The notes under the pieces are model-generated. The model did no database searches. It saw only the letters and a list, made by a program, of their open reading frames with translations, and was not told where the DNA came from. From positions 31,248,001 through 31,312,000 of the forward strand of contig OX597815.1 of the NCBI GenBank assembly GCA_951406725.2: a stretch of DNA of 64,000 nucleotides. Direction: 5' to 3'. The stretch comes from Octopus vulgaris. Taxonomy: Eukaryota. Every line of letters starts with the position of its first letter. Position 1 is the first letter of the stretch. The position numbers and the translations under genes were made by a program. Below, piece after piece: positions 3,225 through 64,000 of this stretch.

Positions 3225-4060
3225 GTTCGGAATCGCGGATATCAATGTGCGATAATTGGAAAACCTTTCAAACCTAAATATCATTGGATATTAACATCTT
3301 GACTATATAACAACAGCAACAATGTGATTGGCAAATGGAACATCATACTTTTATAAAACCTCTATAGATTCAGGGGTTCGAAAAGAAGAAAAATTCTACT
3401 AGTCCCATTAGGGACAATCATAAGAGTTTTCTAAGACTACATTTTCACCTCCAAAGCTGAAGAAATATTAACAACTCACTCTAAAACTTAATTACCACTG
3501 CACTCAAACCCATATACCCAAGGAATATTTTATCTCAAGAGAGACTATATAAAGCCAAGATTAACTTCAATGCATCACAGTCCGACAAGGCTGCGAGCAG
3601 GCAGAATCGTTAGCACGCCGGGTGAAATGCTTAGCGGTATTTCGTCTGCCGCTACGTTCTGAGTTCAAATTCCGCCGAGGTCGACTTTGCCTTTCATCCT
3701 TTCGGGGTCGATTAAATAAGTACCAGTTACGCACTGGGGTCGATGTAATCGATTTAATCCGTTTGTCTGTCCTTGTTTGTCCTCTATGTGTTTAGCCCCT
3801 TGTGGGTAGTAAAGAAATAGGTATTTTGTCTGCCGTTACGTTCTGAGTTCAAATTCCGCCGAGGTCAACTTTGTCTTTCATCGTTTCAGGGTCGATTAAA
3901 TAAAGTACCAGTTACGCACTGGGGTCGATGTAATCGACTTAATCCCTTTGTTTGTCCTCTCTATGTTTAGCCCCTTGTGGACAATAAAGAAATAAATACG
4001 GCTTAGGTGACCGAAACTTCAAACTCACAGTCAGTAATATTCTTGTTTAAGAATAACATA
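3225..4060 (+). mobile_element. Putative Penelope-like terminal-repeat remnant, interrupted by SINE-A at 3588-3997
   Basis: 3485-3587 plus 3998-4060 align with 8230-8400 (aaaacttaattacc...agagactatataaa...aatgcatc...gaccgaaactt). The shared segment carries a decayed hammerhead core. Confidence 0.45.
3588..3997 (+). mobile_element. SINE-A full copy (3588-3819) followed directly by a 5'-truncated second copy (3820-3997)
   Basis: A-box-like gagcaggcagaatcgttag, B-box gagttcaaattcc, central gcctttcatcctttcggggtcgat...aagtaccag, tail gccccttgtgg...aaagaaata. The unit repeats from ggtattt. Confidence 0.9.
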
Positions 4061-4130
4061 CATACATGTGTGTGCGGGAGTATGTATGTCCGTGTGTGTA
4101 TGTAAGTGCGTATATATATATGTATTCATG

Positions 4131-4181
<51 letters not shown>

Positions 4182-4790
4182 GTAGATATTTCTATCTGAT
4201 TGTATTAGATAAGTGAGTGAATGACTAGTGTATGTATATGTTCATATGAGCGAATGGGTCATCTTTTATTCAGCAATTCATTGACATGTAGTCGCGTGCT
4301 GCTTCGTTAACCAATTAATACTTCATTAAAGGCACAGAAGAATCAAATTGGGATTCTAAACCAGCTCATGCATTATGTCTAACACTGAACAATGGAAAGA
4401 AGCCCTTCGAATGGCTTCCACATACTTTTCGTCAACCAATTTCTAGTCACAAATCTATATTGAGTTTGTATTAAATCAGATCCTTTGTACTAATCTAAGA
4501 GCAGTTTATATTGATACTTTTAGTCTAGTTTTAAATAGCTAATAACAGCAAAATTATTAGTTGCTTATTTGTCACGCGTGGAACATTAGATTAATCTAGG
4601 TTTAGGGTAGCGTTTATATTACGTTTATATTAAATCTGTTACTTTGTACCGATGCAAAAGCGGTTTATATTGAAGCGTTTTACTTAGTTTGGTTTTCAAG
4701 AGTCAATAATGGAAGAATTATTAGTTGCTAACTTATAAACATAGACAGAACACTAGTAAGTCTACTAGTAAATCTATTTCTGGAAGTTTA

Positions 4791-5022
4791 AGGCGGCGAG
4801 CTGGCAGAATCGGTAGCACACCGGGCGAAATTCGTAGCCGTATTTCGTCTGTCGTTACGTTCCGAGTTCAAATTCCGCCGAGGTCGACTTTGCCTTTCAT
4901 CCTTTCGGGGTCGATAAATAAAGTACCAGTTTCGCACTGGGGTCGATGTAATCGACTCAATCCCTTTGTCTGTCCTTGTTTGTCCCCTCTATGTTTAGCC
5001 CCTAGTGGGTAGTAAAGAAATA
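4791..5022 (+). mobile_element. SINE-A, young full-length copy
   Basis: ggcggcgagctggcagaatcggtagc (A box), gagttcaaattcc (B box), central domain resembling the Meta/MESC SINE domain (from memory), tail ...gggtagtaaagaaata. Confidence 0.92.
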
Positions 5023-5264
5023 TATATTGAAGCGTTTTACTTGGTTTGGTTTTCAAGAGTTAATAATGGCAGAATTATTAGTTGCTAACTTGTAAACATA
5101 GGCAGAACACTAGTAAGTCTACTAGTAAATCTATTTCTGGAAGTTTAGGTGGAGTAATAGAAATAGATACGTAACAAAATCATTTGAATATCTGGCGCTG
5201 TATAATCTTTCTTTGTTTTCTAGAATAACAAATGCCCTGCTAACATATTATATACGGCCAATGA

Positions 5265-5495
5265 AAGGCGGCGAGCTGGTAGAAACGTTAGCACGCCGGG
5301 CGAAATGCGTAGCCGTATTTCGTCTGTCGTTACGTTCCGAGTTCAAATTCCGCCGAGGTCGACTTTGCCTTTCATCCTTTCGGGGTCGATAAATTAAGTA
5401 CCAGTTACGCACTGGGGTCGATGTAGTCGACTTAATCCCTTTGTCTGTCCTTGTTTGTTCCCTCTTTGTTTAGCCCCTTGTGGGCAATAAAAAAA
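5265..5495 (+). mobile_element. SINE-A, young full-length copy
   Basis: Near-identical to 4791-5022. Confidence 0.92.
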
Positions 5496-6313
5496 TATAT
5501 ATATTAAATCTGTTGCTTTGTACCCATGCAAAAGTGGTTTGAAGCGTTTTACTTGGTTTGATTTTCAAGAGTTAATAATGGCAGAATTATTAGTTGCTAA
5601 CTTGTAAACATAGGCAGAACACTAGTAAGTCTACTAGTAAATCTATTTCTGGAAGTTTAGGTGGAGTAATAGAAATAGATACGTAACAAAATCATTTGCA
5701 TATCTGGCGCTGCATAATCTTTCTTTGTTTTCTCGAATAACAAATGCCCTGCTAACATATTATATACGGCCAATGATACTTCCAAGGCCATTTCTTTAAT
5801 GAAACGTGTTAATGGTTCTTACTTTATGACTAAAACCGCTCCTATTTTCAACACTTAGAGACATTTCTCTCACAATGACCCTTTTCATTTAAATTCCACC
5901 ATCCATGGTCTCACTTTCCATTACTTCGCGGAATTGTCTTCTTTTTTTTTTTGTTTTTACTTCTTTGGTTGTTGTAGAAATAATATGACAGCATATTTAT
6001 ATATTTGTCTATCAACACGCACGCATATACACACGCATATACACACAGACATCTCAGGAACAGAAACACACATATAGATGCATATATGTGTATACATGTA
6101 AATATATTTATATATGCATGCATGTGTGTGTATACATGTGTGTATGTATCTGTGTGTGTGCATATTGTGTGTATGTTTGTATGCAAGCATGCGTGTATAT
6201 CTGTATATGTATAGATTCCAGTCTATTTCAATCTAAGTAATTTATATTTCAGTCCGTATATACATTCCGTTATCTTTCAATCTAAATAATTTATGTATAG
6301 CTACTGTATATTC

Positions 6314-6519: not shown

Positions 6520-6685
6520 CAGCCAGCCAGCCATCTATCTATGTATCTATCAATATTGATCGTTTTTTTTTACGGTCCCTTTTGATCGAAAACCTACCAC
6601 CCCCTGTTTTTCTCCCCAAAAAGTAAAGCTCTACTTTGTAATTTGTCCCCTCTGTGTTCATCTCTGTGTGGCTAATAAGGAAACA

Positions 6686-6732
<47 letters not shown>

Positions 6733-7117
6733 GTGGTAACATATAACAATATTGACCAAGGTTACCGTGGTCTTTTTCGTAAGCTTTTCTTCCCACGGAT
6801 AAACCTTACTTGCTTTCTCCTTTACACCATACATCATGACACTGTGATACACGATCCCTATTGTTCGTTTTTTTTCCTCTTCCCCTTTTTTCTCTTTTTT
6901 CTTCTTTTTTCATTTTTCTTTTCTTTTGTTCCTTTTCTCTTTTTTCTTTTTTTCTTTTCCCTCTTCCTTTTTTTCCCCTTTTACGATCCCTTTTGATCGA
7001 AAACCTACGCCACCTTTTTTTTTTTCATCCCCCAAAAGAAAAGCTCTACCTTGTAACTCGTCCCATCTGTGTGCAGCCCTGTGTGGCCAATAAAGAAACT
7101 TATCTATTTATCTATCA

Positions 7118-7181
<64 letters not shown>
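6315..7181 (+). repeat. (TATC)n microsatellite tracts interrupted by two LINE-like 3' ends
   Basis: Long tatctatc runs at 6315-6540, 6686-6732 and 7100-7181. Confidence 0.9.
6555..7100 (+). mobile_element. Two 5'-truncated copies of a putative LINE 3' UTR (6555-6685 and 6733-7100)
   Basis: Both share ttttacg(g/a)tcccttttgatcgaaaaccta...aaagctctac...gtgtgg(c)...aataa(a/g)gaaac, and both end in (TATC)n. Confidence 0.6.
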
Positions 7182-7182
<1 letters not shown>

Positions 7183-7999: not shown

Positions 8000-8400
8000 G
8001 GCTTAAATACTGGACATTGTAACTTTGACCTTTACATTGTCAAAGCAAGTGGATTAAATCCAATAATACCAAAAGCAACAAAAATACTGTCACCCCTTGT
8101 GCCCAATTAACACCCAGAGGCCTGTTTGCAAAGTTCTACATACATGAATAAATTCTAAACAATAGCATAACCTCAAGTTTAACCAATTAAAATTTCTCCA
8201 AAACACCTTTGCATAACAGGCAACCACAAAAACCTAATTACTACCCCCACTGAAACACACATGCCCATGGAAGATTTTAACTCAACAGAGACTATATAAA
8301 AGCAAGACTAACTCTAATGCATCGTACTCTGACGATGGTTTAGCTGGCCAAAACTTTGAAGTCACTATCAACAACATTTTCCTTTAAAAATAATGAACAT
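8000..8400 (+). mobile_element. Putative Penelope-like terminal-repeat remnant with decayed hammerhead (8326-8362)
   Basis: Homologous to 3485-4060; actCTGACGAtggtttagctggccaaaac. Confidence 0.4.
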
Positions 8401-8471
8401 ACGTATTTATGAATGTCGCGTGGTCGAATTCTTCAGAAGTTCACTTCGCATCAACGAGATTTTGCTTTCTC

Positions 8472-8905
8472 AGGCGTGGCTGTGTGATAACAAGCTTACT
8501 TCCAAACCACATGGTTCTGAGTTCAGTCCCACTGCGTGGCAAGTATCTTCTATTGTACCATAGCCTCGGGCCGACCAACGTCTAATAAGTTCATTTGGTA
8601 GACGAAAACTGAAAGAAGCCCGTCGTATATGTATATATGCATATATATATATATATATTTACGTGTATGTCTTTGAGTCTGTGTTTGTTCTCCACCCACC
8701 ATCACTTGACACTCGGTGTTGGTGTGTTTACATTCCGTAACTTAGCGGTTCGGCAAAAGACCGATAGAATAAGTACCAGGCTTACAAACAATGAGTTCTG
8801 GAGTTAGTTTCTTCGACTAAAAGGAGGTGCTCCAGCATGGGCTAAAAGCCTTCAAGGTGGTACCCCAGCATGGCCGCAGTCAAAAGACATAAAAAAATAA
8901 AAGAA
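8472..8905 (+). mobile_element. SINE-B
   Basis: ggcgtggctgtgtgataac...gttcagtcccactgcgtgg...cccagcatggccgcagtcaaa. Confidence 0.88.
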
Positions 8906-9410
8906 TATGTATATATGGATGTAGCATACTTGAATCCTTAAGAAGTTCACTTCGCAACAGCGAGATCTCGCGTTCGATTCCACTTCATAGCACCTTTATT
9001 TCAGACTAGGGTCTAATCAAGCCTGATGAATAAAATTGCATAAACAGAATATATATGTAAGCCAGCTGATCTGATATAGATTGTACTTGAAATTAAATTG
9101 ACCAGCCTACACCACACTGATTCCATACTATTATTATGTTATGGGTAGATGTGTTGATGGTGTGTTTAGGCATTTAAGTGCTGACTCAAAGGGCAGGGAC
9201 TTCAGTTGGCTGAACACCTGAATTCCCTTCGTCGAAATCGACGGAGACCTATTTACTGATGATGCATATATGTATGCATGCATACTTGTAAGTGTGTGTG
9301 TGTGTGTGTGTGTTTACTGAACATCAAACTAATACATTACTATTGTACGTCCGCTTGCTCGTTGTTAATTTTAATAATTTTAATGTTCGTTTATTTGATT
9401 TGACTATATC

Positions 9411-9812
9411 GGAGTGGCTGTGTGGTAAGTAGCTTGCTTACCAACCACATGGTTCCGGGTTCAGTCCCACTGCGTGATACCTTGGGTATGTGTCTTCTAC
9501 TATAGCCTCGAGCCGACCAAAGCCTTGTGAGTGGCTTTGGTAGACGGAAACTGCAAGAAGCCCGTCGTATATATATATATATATATGTTTGTGTTTGTAT
9601 ATGTTTGTGTGTCTTTGTCCCCCCCAGCATCACTTGACAACCGATACTAATGTGTTCACGTCCCCGTAACTTAGCGGTTCGGTAAAAGGCACCGATAGAA
9701 AAGAAGTAGGCTTACAAAGAGTAAGTCCTGGGGTCGATTTGCTCGACTAAAGGCGGTGCTCCAGCATGGTCACTGTAAAATTACTGAAACAAGTAAAAGA
9801 GTAACGAGTAAG
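9411..9812 (+). mobile_element. SINE-B, full length
   Basis: ggagtggctgtgtggtaag (A box), gggttcagtccc (B box), tail ctgaaacaagtaaaagagt. Confidence 0.9.
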
Positions 9813-9839
<27 letters not shown>

Positions 9840-11000: not shown

Positions 11001-11724
11001 GTATATATATATATATATACGTATGTATGTACATACATGTGTATGTATGTACATACATTTACACACACAAACATGCGCTTATGTGCGTTTGTGTATCTCT
11101 GTATATGCATGTATATATATATATGCATATATATATATATACATATATGCATATATACATACACATATATATGTGTGAGTGTGTGTATATGTGTGGGAGT
11201 GCGTACATATGTATGCCTCTGTGTGTGTGCGTGTGTATGTGTGTGGTGCGTGTGGGTGTGGTGTGTGTGTGTGTGTGTGGTGTGTGTGTGTGTGTGTGTA
11301 TTGGCCCATACTTAAAAATCTCCATCTATGATTCATACAGCCTTCACGCTAAACAAAGAGCTGTCGTAAGCGCTTTTACCATACAACAGATATTTTGTTT
11401 TACTTCACAGAAAAGATTTGTTCTTTGCTCACGTTTTTGATCCTCGTATCACAAATATATTTTTCTATTTTTCTATTTTCATCATGAAGGAACGTTTCTC
11501 AGTTCTCATTCCAGTTCACCTATGACATCTCCAAGTCCAGCACCAGCTAGGCAAGGCATTGTAGATGTAGCAACAAACATACGAAATCTTAACTACTTAA
11601 AGCAGCGAACATCATGTACGTGCACATACATACATTCAAAATCATACACAAACGTCGAAAACACACAAACACTTACGTACACATATATGTAGGTTTTTTT
11701 TCTTTTTAATATGGAGTAAATAAT

Positions 11725-12381
11725 AGTTTCAAATTATGACACACGGCCAGTAATGTCGGATGTGGAGGTAAGTCGATTATATGAACCCCAGCAAACAATT
11801 AGTATTTAGTCCATCGACACTGAAATGATGAAAGACGAAGTCGACTTCGGCGGAATTTGAACCCAGACCATAAAGACGGACAATACCGCTGAACATTTTG
11901 CTCGGCGGGCTAATAATTCTACCACCTAACCGCCTTTTTTTTGGGTGGGGGGGGTTCAAACTTTGGCACAAAACCAACATTTTCGGAGAAGTGGGTAAAT
12001 CGATTACATCGACCCCAGCACTGAACTGGTACTTATTTTATCGGCCCCAAAATGATGTTGACAAAGTCGACGTCGGTGGAATTTGAACTCAGAACATAAA
12101 GACAGACGAAAAGTTGCTAAGCATTTTACCTAACATGTTAAAGATTCTTATTTCTTTACTGCCCACAAGGGGCTACACACAGATGGGACAAACAAGGACA
12201 GACAAACGGATTAAGTCGATTATATCGACCCCAGTGCGTAACTGGTACTTAATTTATCGACCCCGAAAGGATGAAAGGCAAAGTCGACCTCGGCGGAATT
12301 TGAACTCAGAACGTAGCGGCAGACGAAATACCGCTAAGCATTTCGACCGGCGTGCTAACGATTCTGCCAGCTCGCCGCCTT
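11725..12381 (-). mobile_element. Tandem of two old SINE-A copies plus one young copy (12149-12381)
   Basis: aaagtcgac(c/g/t)tcgg(c/t)ggaatttgaa occurs three times. The young copy has the full tail tatttctttactgcccacaagg. Confidence 0.88.
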
Positions 12382-26589: not shown

Positions 26590-27240
26590 TACTTACTCTT
26601 TTACGCTTTTACTTGTTTCAGTCATTTGACAGCGATCATGCTGGAGCACCGCCTTAAGTCGAGCAAATCGACCAAAGGACTTATTCTTTGTAAGCCTAGT
26701 ACTTATTCTATCGGAATCTTTTGCCGAATCGCTAAGTTACGAGGACGTAAACACACCAACATCGGTTGTCAAGCGATGATGGGGGGGACAAACGCACACA
26801 CACATATATATTTCTTTACTGCCCACAAGGGGCCAAACATAGAGAGGACAAACAAAGACAGACAAACGGATTAAGTCGATTATATCGACCCCAGTGCGTA
26901 ACTGGTACTTAATTTATCGACCCCGAAAGGATGAAAGGCAAAGTCGACCTCGGCGGAATTTGAACTCAGAACGTAACCGCAGACGAAATACGGCTACGCA
27001 TTTCGCCCGGCGTGCTAACGTTTCTGCCAGCTCGTCGATAAATTAAGTACCAGCAACACATATATATACATATACATATATACGACGGGCTTCTTTCAGT
27101 TTCCGTCTACCAAGTCCACTCACAAAGCCTTGGTCGGGCGCGGCTATAGTAGGAGACACTTGCCCAAGGTGCCACGCAGTGGGGCTGAACCTGGAACTAT
27201 GTGGTTGGTAAGCTTACCACACAGCCACTCCTGTGCCTAT
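26590..27240 (-). mobile_element. SINE-B with a young SINE-A (26809-27037, minus strand) nested in its internal microsatellite
   Basis: B tail at 26590-26800 and B head at 27055-27240, with a complete SINE-A between them. Possible TSD acacatatata. Confidence 0.88.
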
Positions 27241-38985: not shown

Positions 38986-39464
38986 TGTTAATGACTATAA
39001 TTGTAGTTTCGATTCCTGTCGATAGCACTTTAGCTCATGTTGTAGTCAATCACTTAATGGATTGGACTATAGTAGTTGGAACCTTGGCAAGGCTTAGTAC
39101 CTCTATTGTCCATGAGCGAAGGATAGAGCCAAGCAACTTCTAACAGTCAAGTCATATAGTCTGTAGACTTCGGTGGGACTGCATCGAATCATTTAGAACA
39201 GTTTTGTTGATGAGAAGCTATCAGTACAGACTAGGTCTCTACTCTTTCCTCGTGCCTGCTCATCACATCAGTCACCAGGTTGTTTCGCCAAGGTCCTGGT
39301 GAAAGCATTCAAGCAACCTCTCCACAGTTTATACATATGATTGAAGCTCGGCATGGACCTGTAGTTTTTGACGCTATAAGTATGCTACACTCAGTTTGTC
39401 AGACACTTCGAGTTTACCGTCTATTGTCTGCTTTTTTTTAACAAGTTAGCAACGACTTTCTTAT

Positions 39465-40789: not shown

Positions 40790-42570
40790 TAATTTCCAAA
40801 GCAAGTATAAGGCCACAAATTTGGTGAGACTGGGTTTGTCATTTAAATAGAGCCCTGTACTTGACCAATGCTAAATTTTATTGAACCTGGAAGAATGTAC
40901 GGTGAATATCAGTCTCCAGGGGAATCTGAATTCAGAACCTTAAAGAGGCATAAATAAATATCACAAAACATTTTGAACGACGCTCAACAGATTTTACCAC
41001 TCCATCGCCCTTATAATAATTGTTTCTAACATAGGCACAGGGCATGAAGTTCGGGGACGCGGGTGTCAACAGACAATCATATTGACTCCAGCATTTGATT
41101 AGTATTTTATTTTATCGACCCAGAAAAGGTGAAAGGCAAAGCCATCCTCGTGGCAATTTGAACCCGAAATGTAAAAAGTATGAAAAGATACTGCGAAGTC
41201 GACGCTCTGACGGGTTCGCCAATCCACTGTCACCAATGATTATACTAATAAGGCACAAAGACAAAGATTTGAGGTGAGAGGCTGGTTGATTACATGGACC
41301 ACAATGCTTTACTCTTTTACTCTTTTATTTGTTCCTGTCTTTTGACTGCAGCCATGCTGGAGCACCACCTTTACTGTTACTTCATTTTTACGATGCTGAA
41401 TGGATGAAACGAAGTTGACGGGTAGGATTTGAACTCAGAAAAACTACAGGTAGCATTTTTGCTGACGCTTTAATGATTCTGGTAGCTCAAACCTTTCTAC
41501 AATAGGCACAAGGCCTGCAATATGGGGGAGACGATAGTCGATTTCATCGACCCCAGTCGGTAACTGGTACTTATTTCATCGACCCTGAAAAGATGAGAGG
41601 CAAGGTCGACCTCGGCGGAATTTGAACTCAGAAGGTAATAACGAGCTAAATACTGCTAAGCATTTCGTCCAGTGCGCTAATGATTCTGCCAGCTCGCCGC
41701 CTCATTGTCTTTATTAATAATTGTTTTGAAATTTTGGCTCAAACCCAGTAGTTTCCGGGAAATGAAATTAGTCTTCTACATCGATGCTAGTACTTGTCTG
41801 GTACCATATTTTATGAACCACCCCGAAGGGCTGAAGGGCAAAGCTGACCTTCGCGGAATTTGAAATTAGGACCTGAAGAAATACCACATGGTATATTGTT
41901 CAATGCTTTAACGATATTCCAAGCTAGTCAACTTAATATAAATAATAAGAATTTCGGATTTATCTAGTGAGGATAATTTTGAGGGGAGGGAATCGATACG
42001 ACCAACTCCAGCGCTTTAGCCCATGCTGTAGTCAATCATATTGCAGGCCTTGTGCCTATCGTAGAAAGGATTATTAAAGACAGTGAGCTGCCAGAATCAT
42101 TAAAGCGTCAGCAAAATGGATTCGACTATAGTAGTTGGAACCTTGGCAAGGCTTAGTGCCTCTATTGTCCATGAGCGAAGGATAGAGCCAAGCTACTTCT
42201 AACAGTCAAGCCATATAGTCTGTAGACTTTGGTGGGACTGCATCGAATCTATTAGGACAGCTTTGTTGATGAGGAGCTATCAGCACAGACTGAGTCTCTA
42301 TTTTTTCCTCATACCTGCTCATCACATCAGTCACTACGTTGTTTCGCTATGGTCCTGGTGAAATGCATTCGAGCAACCTCTCCACAGTTTATACATATGA
42401 TTGAAGATCGGTATGGACCGCTAGTTTTTGACGCTATAAGTATTGTATCAACCCTTGAAATGATGAAAGGCAAAGTCGACATTGGAAGGATTTGAAACAT
42501 AGTCTTAAACAGCCGACTCAAATATTGCCATACATATTTTTTCCGAAGCTCTGCTGATTCTGCCAGCTCA
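40790..42570 (-). mobile_element. Head-to-tail array of ~6 old SINE-A copies
   Basis: Repeated units aggcac(a)agg...tcgaccc...gaaaggcaaag...atttgaa...cattt...gattctg, all on the minus strand. Confidence 0.75.
42010..42445 (+). repeat. Local copy of the RT segment at 39025-39385
   Basis: gactatagtagttggaaccttggcaaggcttagt...gtttttgacgctataagtat is present twice. Confidence 0.9.
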
Positions 42571-42900
42571 AAATAATGATAACAATGATTTCGTATATAG
42601 ATATAATGATAGATTGATGATAATAATACTAGACACGTTCTTGGTGTTGTTGTTCTCAACGTTGTACTTTGTTTTGTTAAAACTCAAACGTTACAGCAGA
42701 AGAATTTTGAACAATGAATAGACGAGAAACGGAAATAAGATGAATTATGATTCATTCACTTCCGATTCTCTCTCCACTTTCTTGGCAAATAATCAACATA
42801 TTTTCGTATGCATTGGAAAATGTCCACCCGTAAACCGGCTTGGCGTGTGTGCACTTATATACATATATACATACACGCATTCACAAATGTGTGAATGTAA

Positions 42901-43859: not shown

Positions 43860-44570
43860 ACATTTTTTTATCGGTCCTGAACAGGATTTGAACTTAGAAC
43901 TTATAGAGTCAGAAGAAATGTCGCTAAGCATTTTGTCCGATATGCTTACGATTCTGCCACTTCTCATCATACTTTGTTCGTATTTTAGGGAGAACATTTT
44001 CAAGATGCTCACAAATATTGGTTTCAAATTTTGACATGAGGCCAGTAGCAATTACATCGACCCCCAGTGTTCAACTGGTATTATTTTATTCACCCTGAAA
44101 GGATGGAAGGCAAAGTAGGTCTCAGCAGAATTTGAAATCAGAATCTAGAGCCAGAAGAAATGCCGCTAAGCATTTTGCCCAGAGTGCTAACAATTCTTGC
44201 AGCTCGCCGCCTTAAATATTGGTTTCTAATTTGGCACAGAGCTAGTAATTTCGGGGCAGAAGTTAAGTCGATTACATCGACCCCAAAGCTCAACTGGTAC
44301 CGAAAAGATGGAAGACACAGTCGACCTCGACGGAATTTAAACTCAGAACGTGAATGCCTATTTCTTTACTACTCACAAGGGGCTAAACACAGAGAGGACA
44401 AACAAGGACAAACAAAGGGATTAAGTCGATCACATCGACCCCAGTGCGTAACTGGTACTTAATTTATCGACCCCCGAAACGATGAAAGGCAAAGTCTACC
44501 TCAGAAAGTGAATGCTGCTAAGCATTTTGCCCGGTGTGCTAACAATTTTGCCATCACGCCACCTTAAGAC
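43860..44570 (-). mobile_element. Tandem old SINE-A copies with a young 5'-truncated copy (44358-44500) nested inside
   Basis: TSD ctcagaa(c/a)gtgaatgc flanks the young fragment. Confidence 0.8.
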
Positions 44571-52973: not shown

Positions 52974-53050
<77 letters not shown>

Positions 53051-53587
53051 GGCAGTGACTCTCATGGCTTCTGATCTTAACTGATTGGAAGTGTTATCAT
53101 GTACATTGTTTTGTCTTGGTATAAAAGATGGGCTACAGCAAATATTCTGCTCAATACCACAGATTTGCTTGTCACTTGTTTGACCTTAACCAGTTGAGCA
53201 TGTCCCTTAGTGGCTGACGATATGTGCATCTCTGATCACGAGCAGAAGGAGTGGGGGAGCATCATAGCCATGTGTTGAGAGGGATTCTTTGGGGTTTGAA
53301 TAATTCACCTCTGGAAACATGGGTGGTTCTTTCAACATCCTTAAACAACCCTTATTCAGGGACCTTTTGAGCGGGATGGGCTACTCAACCTGAAGAAAAT
53401 TCTAACTGGGCCCCACCTGCAAGGTCATGTGCTGTTTATCTTGATATGAGATCACCATGTCGCGCACATATGGTTGTGATGCATGTGCCTGGTGTACCTT
53501 TATCAGACGGGTAGTCATGATGGGTATATTGGGCTTCGTATATTTTACCCCAGTGTCACTTTGATGGCATGAACTGCTCTCTCACTC
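53051..53587 (+). mobile_element. ~540-bp non-coding interspersed element embedded in (TAA)n
   Basis: Flanked on both sides by (TAA)n; second copy in reverse orientation at 63279-63830. Confidence 0.85.
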
Positions 53588-53599
53588 AATAATAATAAT

Positions 53600-53601
53600 A
53601 A

Positions 53602-53632
<31 letters not shown>

Positions 53633-54072
53633 AAGAAGAAGAAGAAGAAGAAGAAGAAGAAGAAGAAGAAGAAGAAGAAGGAGGAGGAAGAGGAAGAGGA
53701 AGAGGAAGAAGAAGAAGAAGAAGAAGAAGAAGAAGAAGAAGGAGGAGGAGAAAGAGGAAGAGGAAGAAGAAGAAGAAGAAGAAGAAGAAGAAGAAGAAGA
53801 AGAAGAAGAAGAAGAAGAAGAAGAAGAAGACGAAGAAGAACATTTCTTTGTAAGTTACATATATACTAGCACACATAATTTTATGGAAGCGAACAGTCTT
53901 TCGAATCGTTCCCACAGTGCTTGACTGGTACTTTATGTTATTTACCCATAAGAATGAAGGGTTAAGTCGACCACGAAGCGATTCCAACCAGAATTTAAAG
54001 AGACGTAACTAAGTAAAAGAAGGAAGCATATTTTTTTTTAAGTGCATTATTAATTCCATCACCCCACAGCTA

Positions 54073-56130: not shown

Positions 56131-56349
56131 GCCGCGAGCTGGCAGAAACGTTAGCGCGCCGGGTGAAATGCTTAGCGGTATTTCGTCTGTCGTTACGTTG
56201 TGAGTTCAAATTCCGCCGAGGTTGACTTTGCCTTTCATCCTTTCGGGGTCGATAAATAAAGTACCAGTTTCGCACTGGGGTCGGTGTAATCGACTTAGTC
56301 CCTTGTTTGTCCCCTCTATGTTTAGCCCCTTGTGGGCAGTAAAGAAATA
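56131..56349 (+). mobile_element. SINE-A young copy
   Basis: Full head-to-tail match with a short internal deletion. Confidence 0.9.
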
Positions 56350-60239: not shown

Positions 60240-60467
60240 CAACGTTGACTGATTTGTGCTGGTAGATCACCCGATCGAGGAAAGAGAAATATAAGAGATA
60301 TATTTTCTACGCGGTATCTGCAGTGAATTTGTCTTTCAGTAGTTGAAATATGTCACAAACATATTTTAACTAACCTAAATTTTGCTAACGCCTAAAAGCT
60401 GCTTGGCGCTAACATTTCGTCATTTTCCTCGATCGGGTGATCTAACAGCGCAAATCAATCAACGTTG
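60240..60467. repeat. Inverted repeat (~44-bp arms) whose spacer recurs at 60630-60720
   Basis: caacgttgactgatttgtgctggtagatcacccgatcgaggaaa / tttcctcgatcgggtgatctaacagcgcaaatcaatcaacgttg. Confidence 0.8.
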
Positions 60468-60940
60468 TTGACTGAATTTTAAATAAAGCTAATGCACTAT
60501 AAGTTTGTTTAGATTTGCCTCTCTTAAGTACGTTCCATTGACAAGAGACAGAAAACTCGAATTATCGATGTCTGGGTTTCCTCATTGATGGCGACACTGA
60601 ACAAACCGGGAGTTTTCACACCTTTACAAAATGAGATATTTTCTCTACGGTAAGTGCAGTGAATTTACCTTTTAGCGGTTAAAATATGTCAGTAAGATAT
60701 TTTAACTAATCTAAATTTTGTATGCGCAAACACACACACACACATATATATTATATATATCTTATATATATTATATATATAAGTCCATAAGTCAGGAGAA
60801 AGATGCACTCATATATCAGTCAATAGAGTGGGTATATCATACGAAGTGTACAGCATTAAATATCCATCACGACGGAAACCGATTGGTAAGCTCGACCGTG
60901 ATGGATATATAGTACTGTACGCCTCGGATAATACATATAA

Positions 60941-62763: not shown

Positions 62764-63278
62764 AGTGAACGGATCTACTCTAAACATGGGCTTGTAAATT
62801 GAAGGACAATGTGAAAAAGGCTCTTGCAGTAGTAGTCAGGGTGATTGTCTTTTTTGTGGGGTCCCCACGAAGGCTCCCTCTTTGTGAAATTATTCAATGT
62901 TATAATTTTATACTGTCACTGTTTTACTTTAACACACTTTTAATGTAACCCCATATTGTACTGTCCTACACCGTCATCTATGTTTTTTGAACACTTAGAA
63001 GTTAATAAAAAATCACTAATATTATTATTATTGTTGTTGTTGTTGTTGTTGTTGTTATTAACATTATTTTTATTATTAATAATAATATTTTAAGGATGCG
63101 AGTTGGGGGTCGATGTAATTGATTTAGCCTCTCCCTCGAAATTTCAAGTCTTATGCCTACAACAGAAAGTATTATTATGATTATTATTATTATTATTATT
63201 GTTGTTGTTGTTGTTGTTGTTGTTGTTTTTGTTGTTGTTGTTGTTGTTGTTATCATCATTATTATTGTTGTTGTTGTT

Positions 63279-63830
63279 GGGTGAGAGAGCTGTGCATACA
63301 TGAAAGTGACACTAGGGTAAAATATACGAAATCCAACGTACCATCATGACTACCCGTCTGATAAGGGTACACTAGTTACATTCATCACAACCATATGTGC
63401 GCGTCATGGTAATCTCATATCAAGATTAACAGCGCATGACCTTGCGTGTGGGGCCCAGTTAGAATTTTCTTCAGGTCGAGTAGCCCATCCCGCTCAAAAG
63501 GTCTTTGGATAAGGGTTTTTTAAGGATGTTGAACAAAACACCCATGTTTTCAAAGGAGAATTATCCAAACCCCAAAGAATTCCTCTCAACACATGGCTAT
63601 GATGCTCCCCCACTACTTCTGCTCGTAATCAGAGATACATATATCGTCAGCCACTAAGTGACATGCTCAACTGGTTAAGGTCAATCAACCGACAAGCAAA
63701 TCAGTGGTATTGGGAAGAATATTTGCAGTAGCCCATCTTTTATACCAAGGCAAAACAATGTACATGATGACACTTCCAATCAGTTAAGATGAGAAGCCAT
63801 GCAGCCACTGCCTGGTACTGCATCAATGCT
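63279..63830 (-). mobile_element. Second copy of the (TAA)n-embedded element
   Basis: Reverse complement of 53051-53587, about 20 nt longer at the 5' end. Flanked by (TTA/TTG)n. Confidence 0.85.
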
Positions 63831-64000
63831 TTTTATTATTATTATTATTATTATTATTCAGTAGTTTTATTTTTATAGCGTGCTTTCACTTCACTATATG
63901 TGTTTGTAAGTCCTGGTGTTTTTGTTATGTATTTGTCTGAATATTTTTTTATCATGCCTAATGCACCTACTATGATAGGAATTGTTTCTGTTTTCAGGTT

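Follow-up and report, generated by a model that had tools for sequence, protein, structure and literature searches.

The window, by which we mean the whole 64-kb stretch of DNA analyzed here, is microsatellite-rich animal DNA with several SINE families. Within it a host segment, X-Y-Z, is triplicated and holds two full-length SINE-A copies, S1 and S2, in the order X1, Y1, S1, Y2, Z1, S2, X2'-Y3, Z2, all on the plus strand. The features are as follows (a slash marks the junction within the target motif):

4456-4614 (+): older, degenerate tandem X-Y copy, starting at TATATT; 76% alike over 156 aligned columns, right end approximate
4626-4665 (+): X1, opening segment of the left repeat around S2; begins GTT/TATATT
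4666-4790 (+): Y1, left 125-bp copy of the S1 duplication, lying within the left copy of the S2 duplication; begins GTT/TATATT
4790-5022 (+): S1, full-length SINE-A with 5' end AAGGCGG and tail AAAGAAATA; the A at 4790 is common to the target
5023-5147 (+): Y2, right 125-bp copy of the S1 duplication
5148-5264 (+): Z1, last segment of the left repeat around S2; 114/117 to Z2
5265-5499 (+): S2, full-length SINE-A (5265-5497) of the S1 subfamily; tail AAAAAAATA, then TA
5500-5659 (+): X2'-Y3, opening segment of the right repeat around S2; a 5-bp deletion takes out the second TATATT
5660-5776 (+): Z2, last segment of the right repeat around S2

Alignment of the flanks bears out the original observation that direct repeats of 125 bp and ~280 bp surround the two elements. 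Y1 and Y2 are identical at 120/125 positions (96%) with no gap, and their local alignment score of 230 compares with a maximum of 53 in 300 dinucleotide shuffles. S2 is bracketed by a 282/277-bp repeat, the left copy of which is split by S1; X1Y1 (4626-4790) and X2'-Y3 agree at 151/160 positions apart from the 5-bp deletion in the right copy, and Z1 and Z2 differ at three of 117. Host DNA in direct repeat abuts both element ends, exactly in the case of S1, and in the case of S2 once the nested S1 and Y2 are removed. The two SINEs are identical at 215/230 positions, a divergence of 6.5%, and the flank copies diverge by ~2-6%. Since S1 and S2 are only 93.5% alike, neither was copied locally from the other, and a segmental duplication of S1 together with its flank as the origin of S2 was ruled out on the junctions, both of which differ. 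A high-copy repeat in the flank was likewise ruled out by flank comparison and by depth, which is single-copy-like in sequencing runs X2 and X16. The older copy lies directly upstream of the next copy with no SINE between them and aligns with a score of 90 against a shuffle maximum of 49; its right end possibly lies close to the 5' junction of S1, though two alignments disagree.

The locus contains four distinct junctions, each at a SINE terminus. At both 3' junctions the SINE tail ...AAATA abuts TATATT in the same register and the target reads GTT/TATATT, with an additional TA behind the tail of S2, so that the expected placement of both 3' junctions at a TATATT motif directly after the tail is confirmed for S1 and S2 alike. 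ATATAT also occurs at the 3' end of three other SINE-A copies, and 4/5 occurrences of the GTTTATATT motif in the window fall at 4504-4671. The 5' side is less clear-cut than had been claimed. At S1 the filled site reads ...ggaagttta/AGGCGG and the target ...ggaagttta/GGTGG; the likeness of aggcgg to aggtgg proposed as microhomology is real, but it is imperfect and lies beyond the join, and strict microhomology amounts to one A. The S2 5' join has 0-1 nt.

SINE-A is a dispersed, non-coding element of ~233 bp with defined ends, found at eight loci in the window. ARAGORN reported 0 tRNAs, and Rfam gave no tRNA match in 3500-6000; two stretches of the element, GAGCTGG... and GTTCAAATTCC, are what we take to be A and B box-like sequences. 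Membership in the MetaSINE superfamily is defined by a 66-bp Meta-domain directly after the tRNA-derived head, and from its central domain SINE-A may be a member. Like those elements, it has a central domain common across phyla and a tail shared with another repeat, behind a putative tRNA-type head (PMC4824008); the main text of that paper mentions neither TSD nor target site. The SINE-A tail is common to short repeats at 6568 and 6979 (74-82% over ~50 bp). These repeats (6568-6732 and 6979-7182) end in (TATC)n and are candidate 5'-truncated ends of the partner LINE; a scan of seven frames found no reverse transcriptase domain. Elsewhere there were 0 matches to SINE-A in viral contigs, 0 in genome contigs and 0 in metagenomes (tail pattern). 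A central-domain pattern matched at least 121 metagenome loci that, among the 25 listed, have only ~40 bp in common with SINE-A and were left out of the duplication counts. The contigs concerned carry a different, unrelated animal SINE family, variable in its tails and identical in the central 23-mer, of which ~8100 stretches are estimated in the metagenome collection.

Contig support for the locus was sought in four public runs (X1, X2, X4 and X16) of 24, representing four different samples, among which X16 carries another organism label and X1 may be the source sample; 172,863-451,723 contigs were placed per run, and the element is high-copy. In X1 a 170-bp contig (5475-5644) crosses the S2 3' junction and the 5-bp deletion with 0 mismatches. 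X2 gives contigs 4200-4790 and 5118-5264, the Z1 part being matched without mismatch, and X16 gives a single 711-bp contig equal to 4200-4665 joined to 5023-5264, with one Y and no S1. This S1-free path could represent graph collapse or recombinational excision. Among the contigs listed, X4 provides no informative piece, no contig in the four runs spans the whole region and none is empty of S2; the S1 3' junction is not among the listed pieces of the four runs, which like the depth holes proves nothing. For the window haplotype, a graph model with k=31 predicts unitig ends that include 4790, 5118, 5264 and 5644, where a fully empty allele predicts none. The observed contig ends match these predictions, which suggests that both 5' junctions are branch points in other samples. 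A second copy joined to a SINE tail should interrupt contigs where X and Y begin, yet those of X2 and X16 continue unbroken there; the missing breaks may be assembler simplification, but SINEs lying at 4790 or 5264 with no long duplication would account for them as well. With the S2 3' junction bridged by a contig, both 5' junctions marked by exact contig ends and the S1-free path present in one run, assembly error is unlikely, and the triplicated structure is real.

We consider two independent target-primed SINE-A insertions with long TSDs, sporadic and favored by the locus, to be the best explanation of this structure, with a probability of about 0.6. Independence is suggested by the 6.5% difference between the SINEs relative to ~2-6% between the flanks, by the position of the junctions at element termini, by the common priming motif and by the S1-free path. 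The same termini, motif and path make the most likely account the one originally proposed, in which each insertion duplicated host DNA by joining its 5' end far from the priming nick. The divergence between flank copies (2.6-5.6%) also fits the 3.3% divergence of these SINEs from their consensus. In this mechanism a LINE enzyme would nick the bottom strand at GTT/TATATT, and the freed ...AATATA-3' end would pair with the RNA tail ...AAAUA and prime cDNA synthesis. The cDNA end would then be joined 125 bp (S1) or 282 bp (S2) downstream instead of ~12 bp, either through a second nick far away or through strand displacement, and fill-in synthesis would duplicate the interval between nick and join.

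Whether long duplication belongs to the SINE-A family or to this position can be judged from the other copies in the window. Comparison of 1-kb flanks yields a long repeat at S1 and S2 only, and the other 6/8 loci have no long flank repeat within 1 kb. Measured against a majority consensus of nine copies, S1 and S2 diverge by 3.3% and the copies at 56131, 12381 and 27037 by 3.5-3.9%, so three of the loci lacking a long repeat are about as young. The 27037 copy has the S1/S2 subfamily letters and sits in another repeat, a paralog of which (9400-9820) shows no long duplication; the copy itself has a low-complexity duplication of at most 12 bp, counting a 20-bp inverted piece as insert. This SINE-A (26809-27057, minus strand) lies inside the (TA)n tract of another SINE family, and the 20-bp inverted piece at its 5' junction comes from its own central domain. 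The idea that long TSDs are a property of young SINE-A is thus not sustained. Two events at one spot together with an older SINE-less duplication point to the locus rather than the family, and long duplication looks to be a property of this spot; the clustered GTTTATATT and the older tandem X-Y copy give it the appearance of a hot spot. Nor does SINE-A follow a rule of the R9 type, in which most copies have a duplication of fixed length at a fixed target: here it is found at 2/8 loci, with lengths of 125 and ~280 bp, at dispersed sites.

For the other families we scanned the whole window for local direct repeats and compared the flanks of 34 hand-delimited elements or clusters, some of them nested. 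That SINE-C and SINE-D have short TSDs was confirmed: one C copy has 18 bp and three D copies have 11, 12 and 15 bp, rather than the 11-14 bp given originally. One further element has a long flank repeat:

8471 to ~8890 (+): SINE of another family, bracketed by an old direct repeat of unique flank, 8386-8469 and 8893-8975

Over 84 bp the two flank copies show 77% identity (E 3.6e-13; score 83 versus a shuffle maximum of 40), and the element and a paralog of it show 75%. Some of the right copy may be element tail, hence a duplication of 70-85 bp, and this is a probable third long duplication in the window. An automatic flag for abutting repeats with a score of at least 50 marked 2/34 rows (8471 and 43886) and 0/994 mismatched flank pairs. 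Masking and nesting hid S1 and S2 (scores 152 and 360) from it, and the count of three cases therefore combines the flank comparisons with the local-repeat scan. The row at 43886 (43801/44021, score 60) was judged SINE-derived, its right part lying within the SINE cluster at 44051. Other pairs were rejected as flank duplications: 6568/6979 are two copies of one element, 60295/60633 have no interspersed element between them and have inverted repeats nearby, and 39056/42115 are 2.7 kb apart and do not abut one element.

Several of these repeats are of separate interest. The last pair (39056-39383 and 42115-42443) is a 329-bp direct repeat, 92% alike, among SINE remnants, and a minus-strand frame (42330-42683) overlapping its second copy has a weak Pfam trehalose-receptor match (E 0.018, below cut-off). 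The region 60240-60720 is MITE-like, with inverted repeats near 60240-60290 and 60420-60470 and a 90-bp direct repeat (82%). An inverted pair of ~690 bp (52991-53679 and 63187-63876, 86%) has triplet-repeat ends and possibly consists of LINE 3' fragments. Head-to-tail SINE dimers or trimers occur at 3587-3996, 11717-12381 and 44051-44567, and the 11717-12381 cluster as a whole may lie between the copies of a 14-bp repeat. In all four runs the main 3' loose end is the tail followed by GGTATTTCGTCT, which may be a dimeric subfamily.

With three elements of two families having flank duplications of 70-280 bp in 64 kb, it could be argued that such products are frequent and built into the retrotransposition machinery of this genome, for SINE-A or for several families, and that most have been lost by recombination that removes the SINE. 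Loss of this kind has been proposed for L1 (PMC5223499), and the S1-free path in X16 could be an instance. However, the 6/8 SINE-A loci without a long repeat within 1 kb, three of them of similar age, argue against frequent production, as do the short duplication of the 27037 copy and the plain paralog of its host repeat; moreover, two of the three cases are at one locus and are the ones that prompted the finding. We therefore regard it as doubtful that long duplications are a regular product. The broader proposition that duplications of 70-300 bp accompany 5-10% or more of SINE insertions across families, whether from the machinery or from germline repair, would be a surprise on the same scale. 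If it were true, small tandem duplications of host DNA would come in large part from SINEs, and many copies would remove themselves again through flank recombination or seed repeat hot spots such as this one.

The pattern of differences among the three copies complicates the simple nested history. Y2 and Z1 (5027-5264) are 98.3% identical to 5539-5776, so that the second copy matches the third and not the first: Y2 differs from Y3 at one position outside the deletion and from Y1 at five. All five differences lie on Y1 and are absent from Y2, from Y3 and from run X2, which has the Y2/Y3 letter at each. The X2 contig contains all nine third-copy letters and does not have the deletion. X1Y1 has 7 substitutions private to the window in 165 bp; the 426 bp upstream have 2 (Fisher p=0.0025) and the 242 bp of Y2Z1 no more than 1 (p=0.009). 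The segment 4626-4790 has about nine times the private substitutions of the upstream flank; 4/7 are G>A, three of these in a TTG context. Y1 and Y2 do not show the even divergence of two initially identical copies. A plain nested order, with S1 entering the left copy of the S2 duplication, would leave Y1 and Y2 as the closest pair; as Y2 is instead closest to Y3, later gene conversion or crossover is needed. An allele with S1 and an allele with S2 may have been joined by a crossover in Y2, or Y2 may have been converted from Y3. Such exchange between copies would explain the likeness of Y2 to Y3 rather than to Y1.

The odd divergence of Y1 keeps alive another explanation, in which the repeats are pseudo-duplications and each SINE is a hybrid produced by unequal crossover between ordinary insertions at offset sites on different alleles. 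This would account for the diverged first copy, and a recombination model of pseudo-TSDs has been discussed for HERV-K (PMC5488345). In addition, an ordinary insertion at 5264 could plausibly have been primed at TATTATAT, 12-20 bp to the left, and the X16 contig (4200-5264) is expected from a SINE heterozygous at 5264 and lacking a long duplication just as well as from our preferred reading. On the other hand, two insertions account for the four junctions, whereas hybrids require four insertions in 282 bp plus two ectopic crossovers; the TATAT motif is absent just left of 4790; and depth in X2 is 23.5 for the Z contig and 16 for the one upstream, which hints weakly at a duplicated Z in that run. 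On balance we think hybrid origin improbable.

A poorer fit is provided by tandem copies that formed beforehand, or during break repair by slippage or template switching, with the SINEs inserted or captured at the repeat junctions. The older SINE-less tandem copy, which starts at TATATT, speaks in its favor. Nevertheless the SINEs are positioned exactly at the repeat junctions, at full length and without an extra short duplication, template switches do not normally copy both exact termini twice, and the target DNA has ordinary secondary structure with no unusual folding (z -0.35), all of which make this sequence of events very unlikely. An assembly or haplotype artefact is scarcely credible, since despite the lack of any listed contig across the whole region and the possible origin of X1 from the source sample, the X1 contig carries the S2 3' junction and the deletion, contigs from two further samples end exactly on the 5' junctions, and the three copies and two SINEs all differ.

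The locus also cautions that presence or absence markers based on SINEs with long flank repeats can revert. The locus is striking for the nesting of its insertions and for the earlier duplication of the same segment, and it is a natural example of such events. If the genome-wide rate proved to be high, it would offer a natural system in which to ask how the second-strand join of non-LTR retrotransposons is determined, and would provide a route, open to measurement, for the duplication of host sequence by SINEs.

Long duplications are known as the rule for R9 and as a minority outcome for L1 and ZfL2-2. R9 is site-specific in rDNA and its duplication length is fixed. In Adineta vaga R9 makes a 126-bp stagger (as cited in PMC6895275); its closeness to the 125 bp of S1 is taken as coincidence, since the lengths here are 125, ~280 and 70-85 bp and most copies have none. 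At HERV-K (HML-2) sites duplications of 250 and 111 bp have been described together with a pseudo-TSD model (PMC5488345). These resemble the present case as natural polymorphic insertions with long flank repeats and with doubt over the empty allele, which may be ancestral or may have arisen by recombination; HERV-K differs in being an integrase-driven LTR element that is not target-primed. Literature on cephalopod SINE TSDs and long duplications, largely open-access, yielded no comparable cephalopod report, and the accessible parts of three further papers (PMC4758252, PMC10249811 and PMC3636483) hold nothing directly pertinent to long SINE duplications; a heterozygosity of 1.22% reported for an octopus genome (bioRxiv) is given as context only. 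Zebrafish ZfL2-2, of the L2 clade, produced one insertion in 25 with a 1228-bp duplication in chicken DT40 cells (PMC2666801), where as here the long duplication is sporadic and the remaining insertions are short, although that LINE was engineered and acted in culture. For human L1, Servant et al. (PMC5223499) report duplications longer than 100 bp in up to 10% of insertions in HeLa cells and in 57-91% in NER-deficient cells, and propose a distant second nick followed by later loss through recombination between the copies. The likeness extends to target priming, to a variable and distant second join and to the minority status of long duplications; the difference is that the element here is a putative tRNA-type SINE without a poly(A) tail, in a natural animal genome, and that the outcome occurred twice at one locus. 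In sum, the locus is a new instance of an already known, rare outcome of target-primed insertion.
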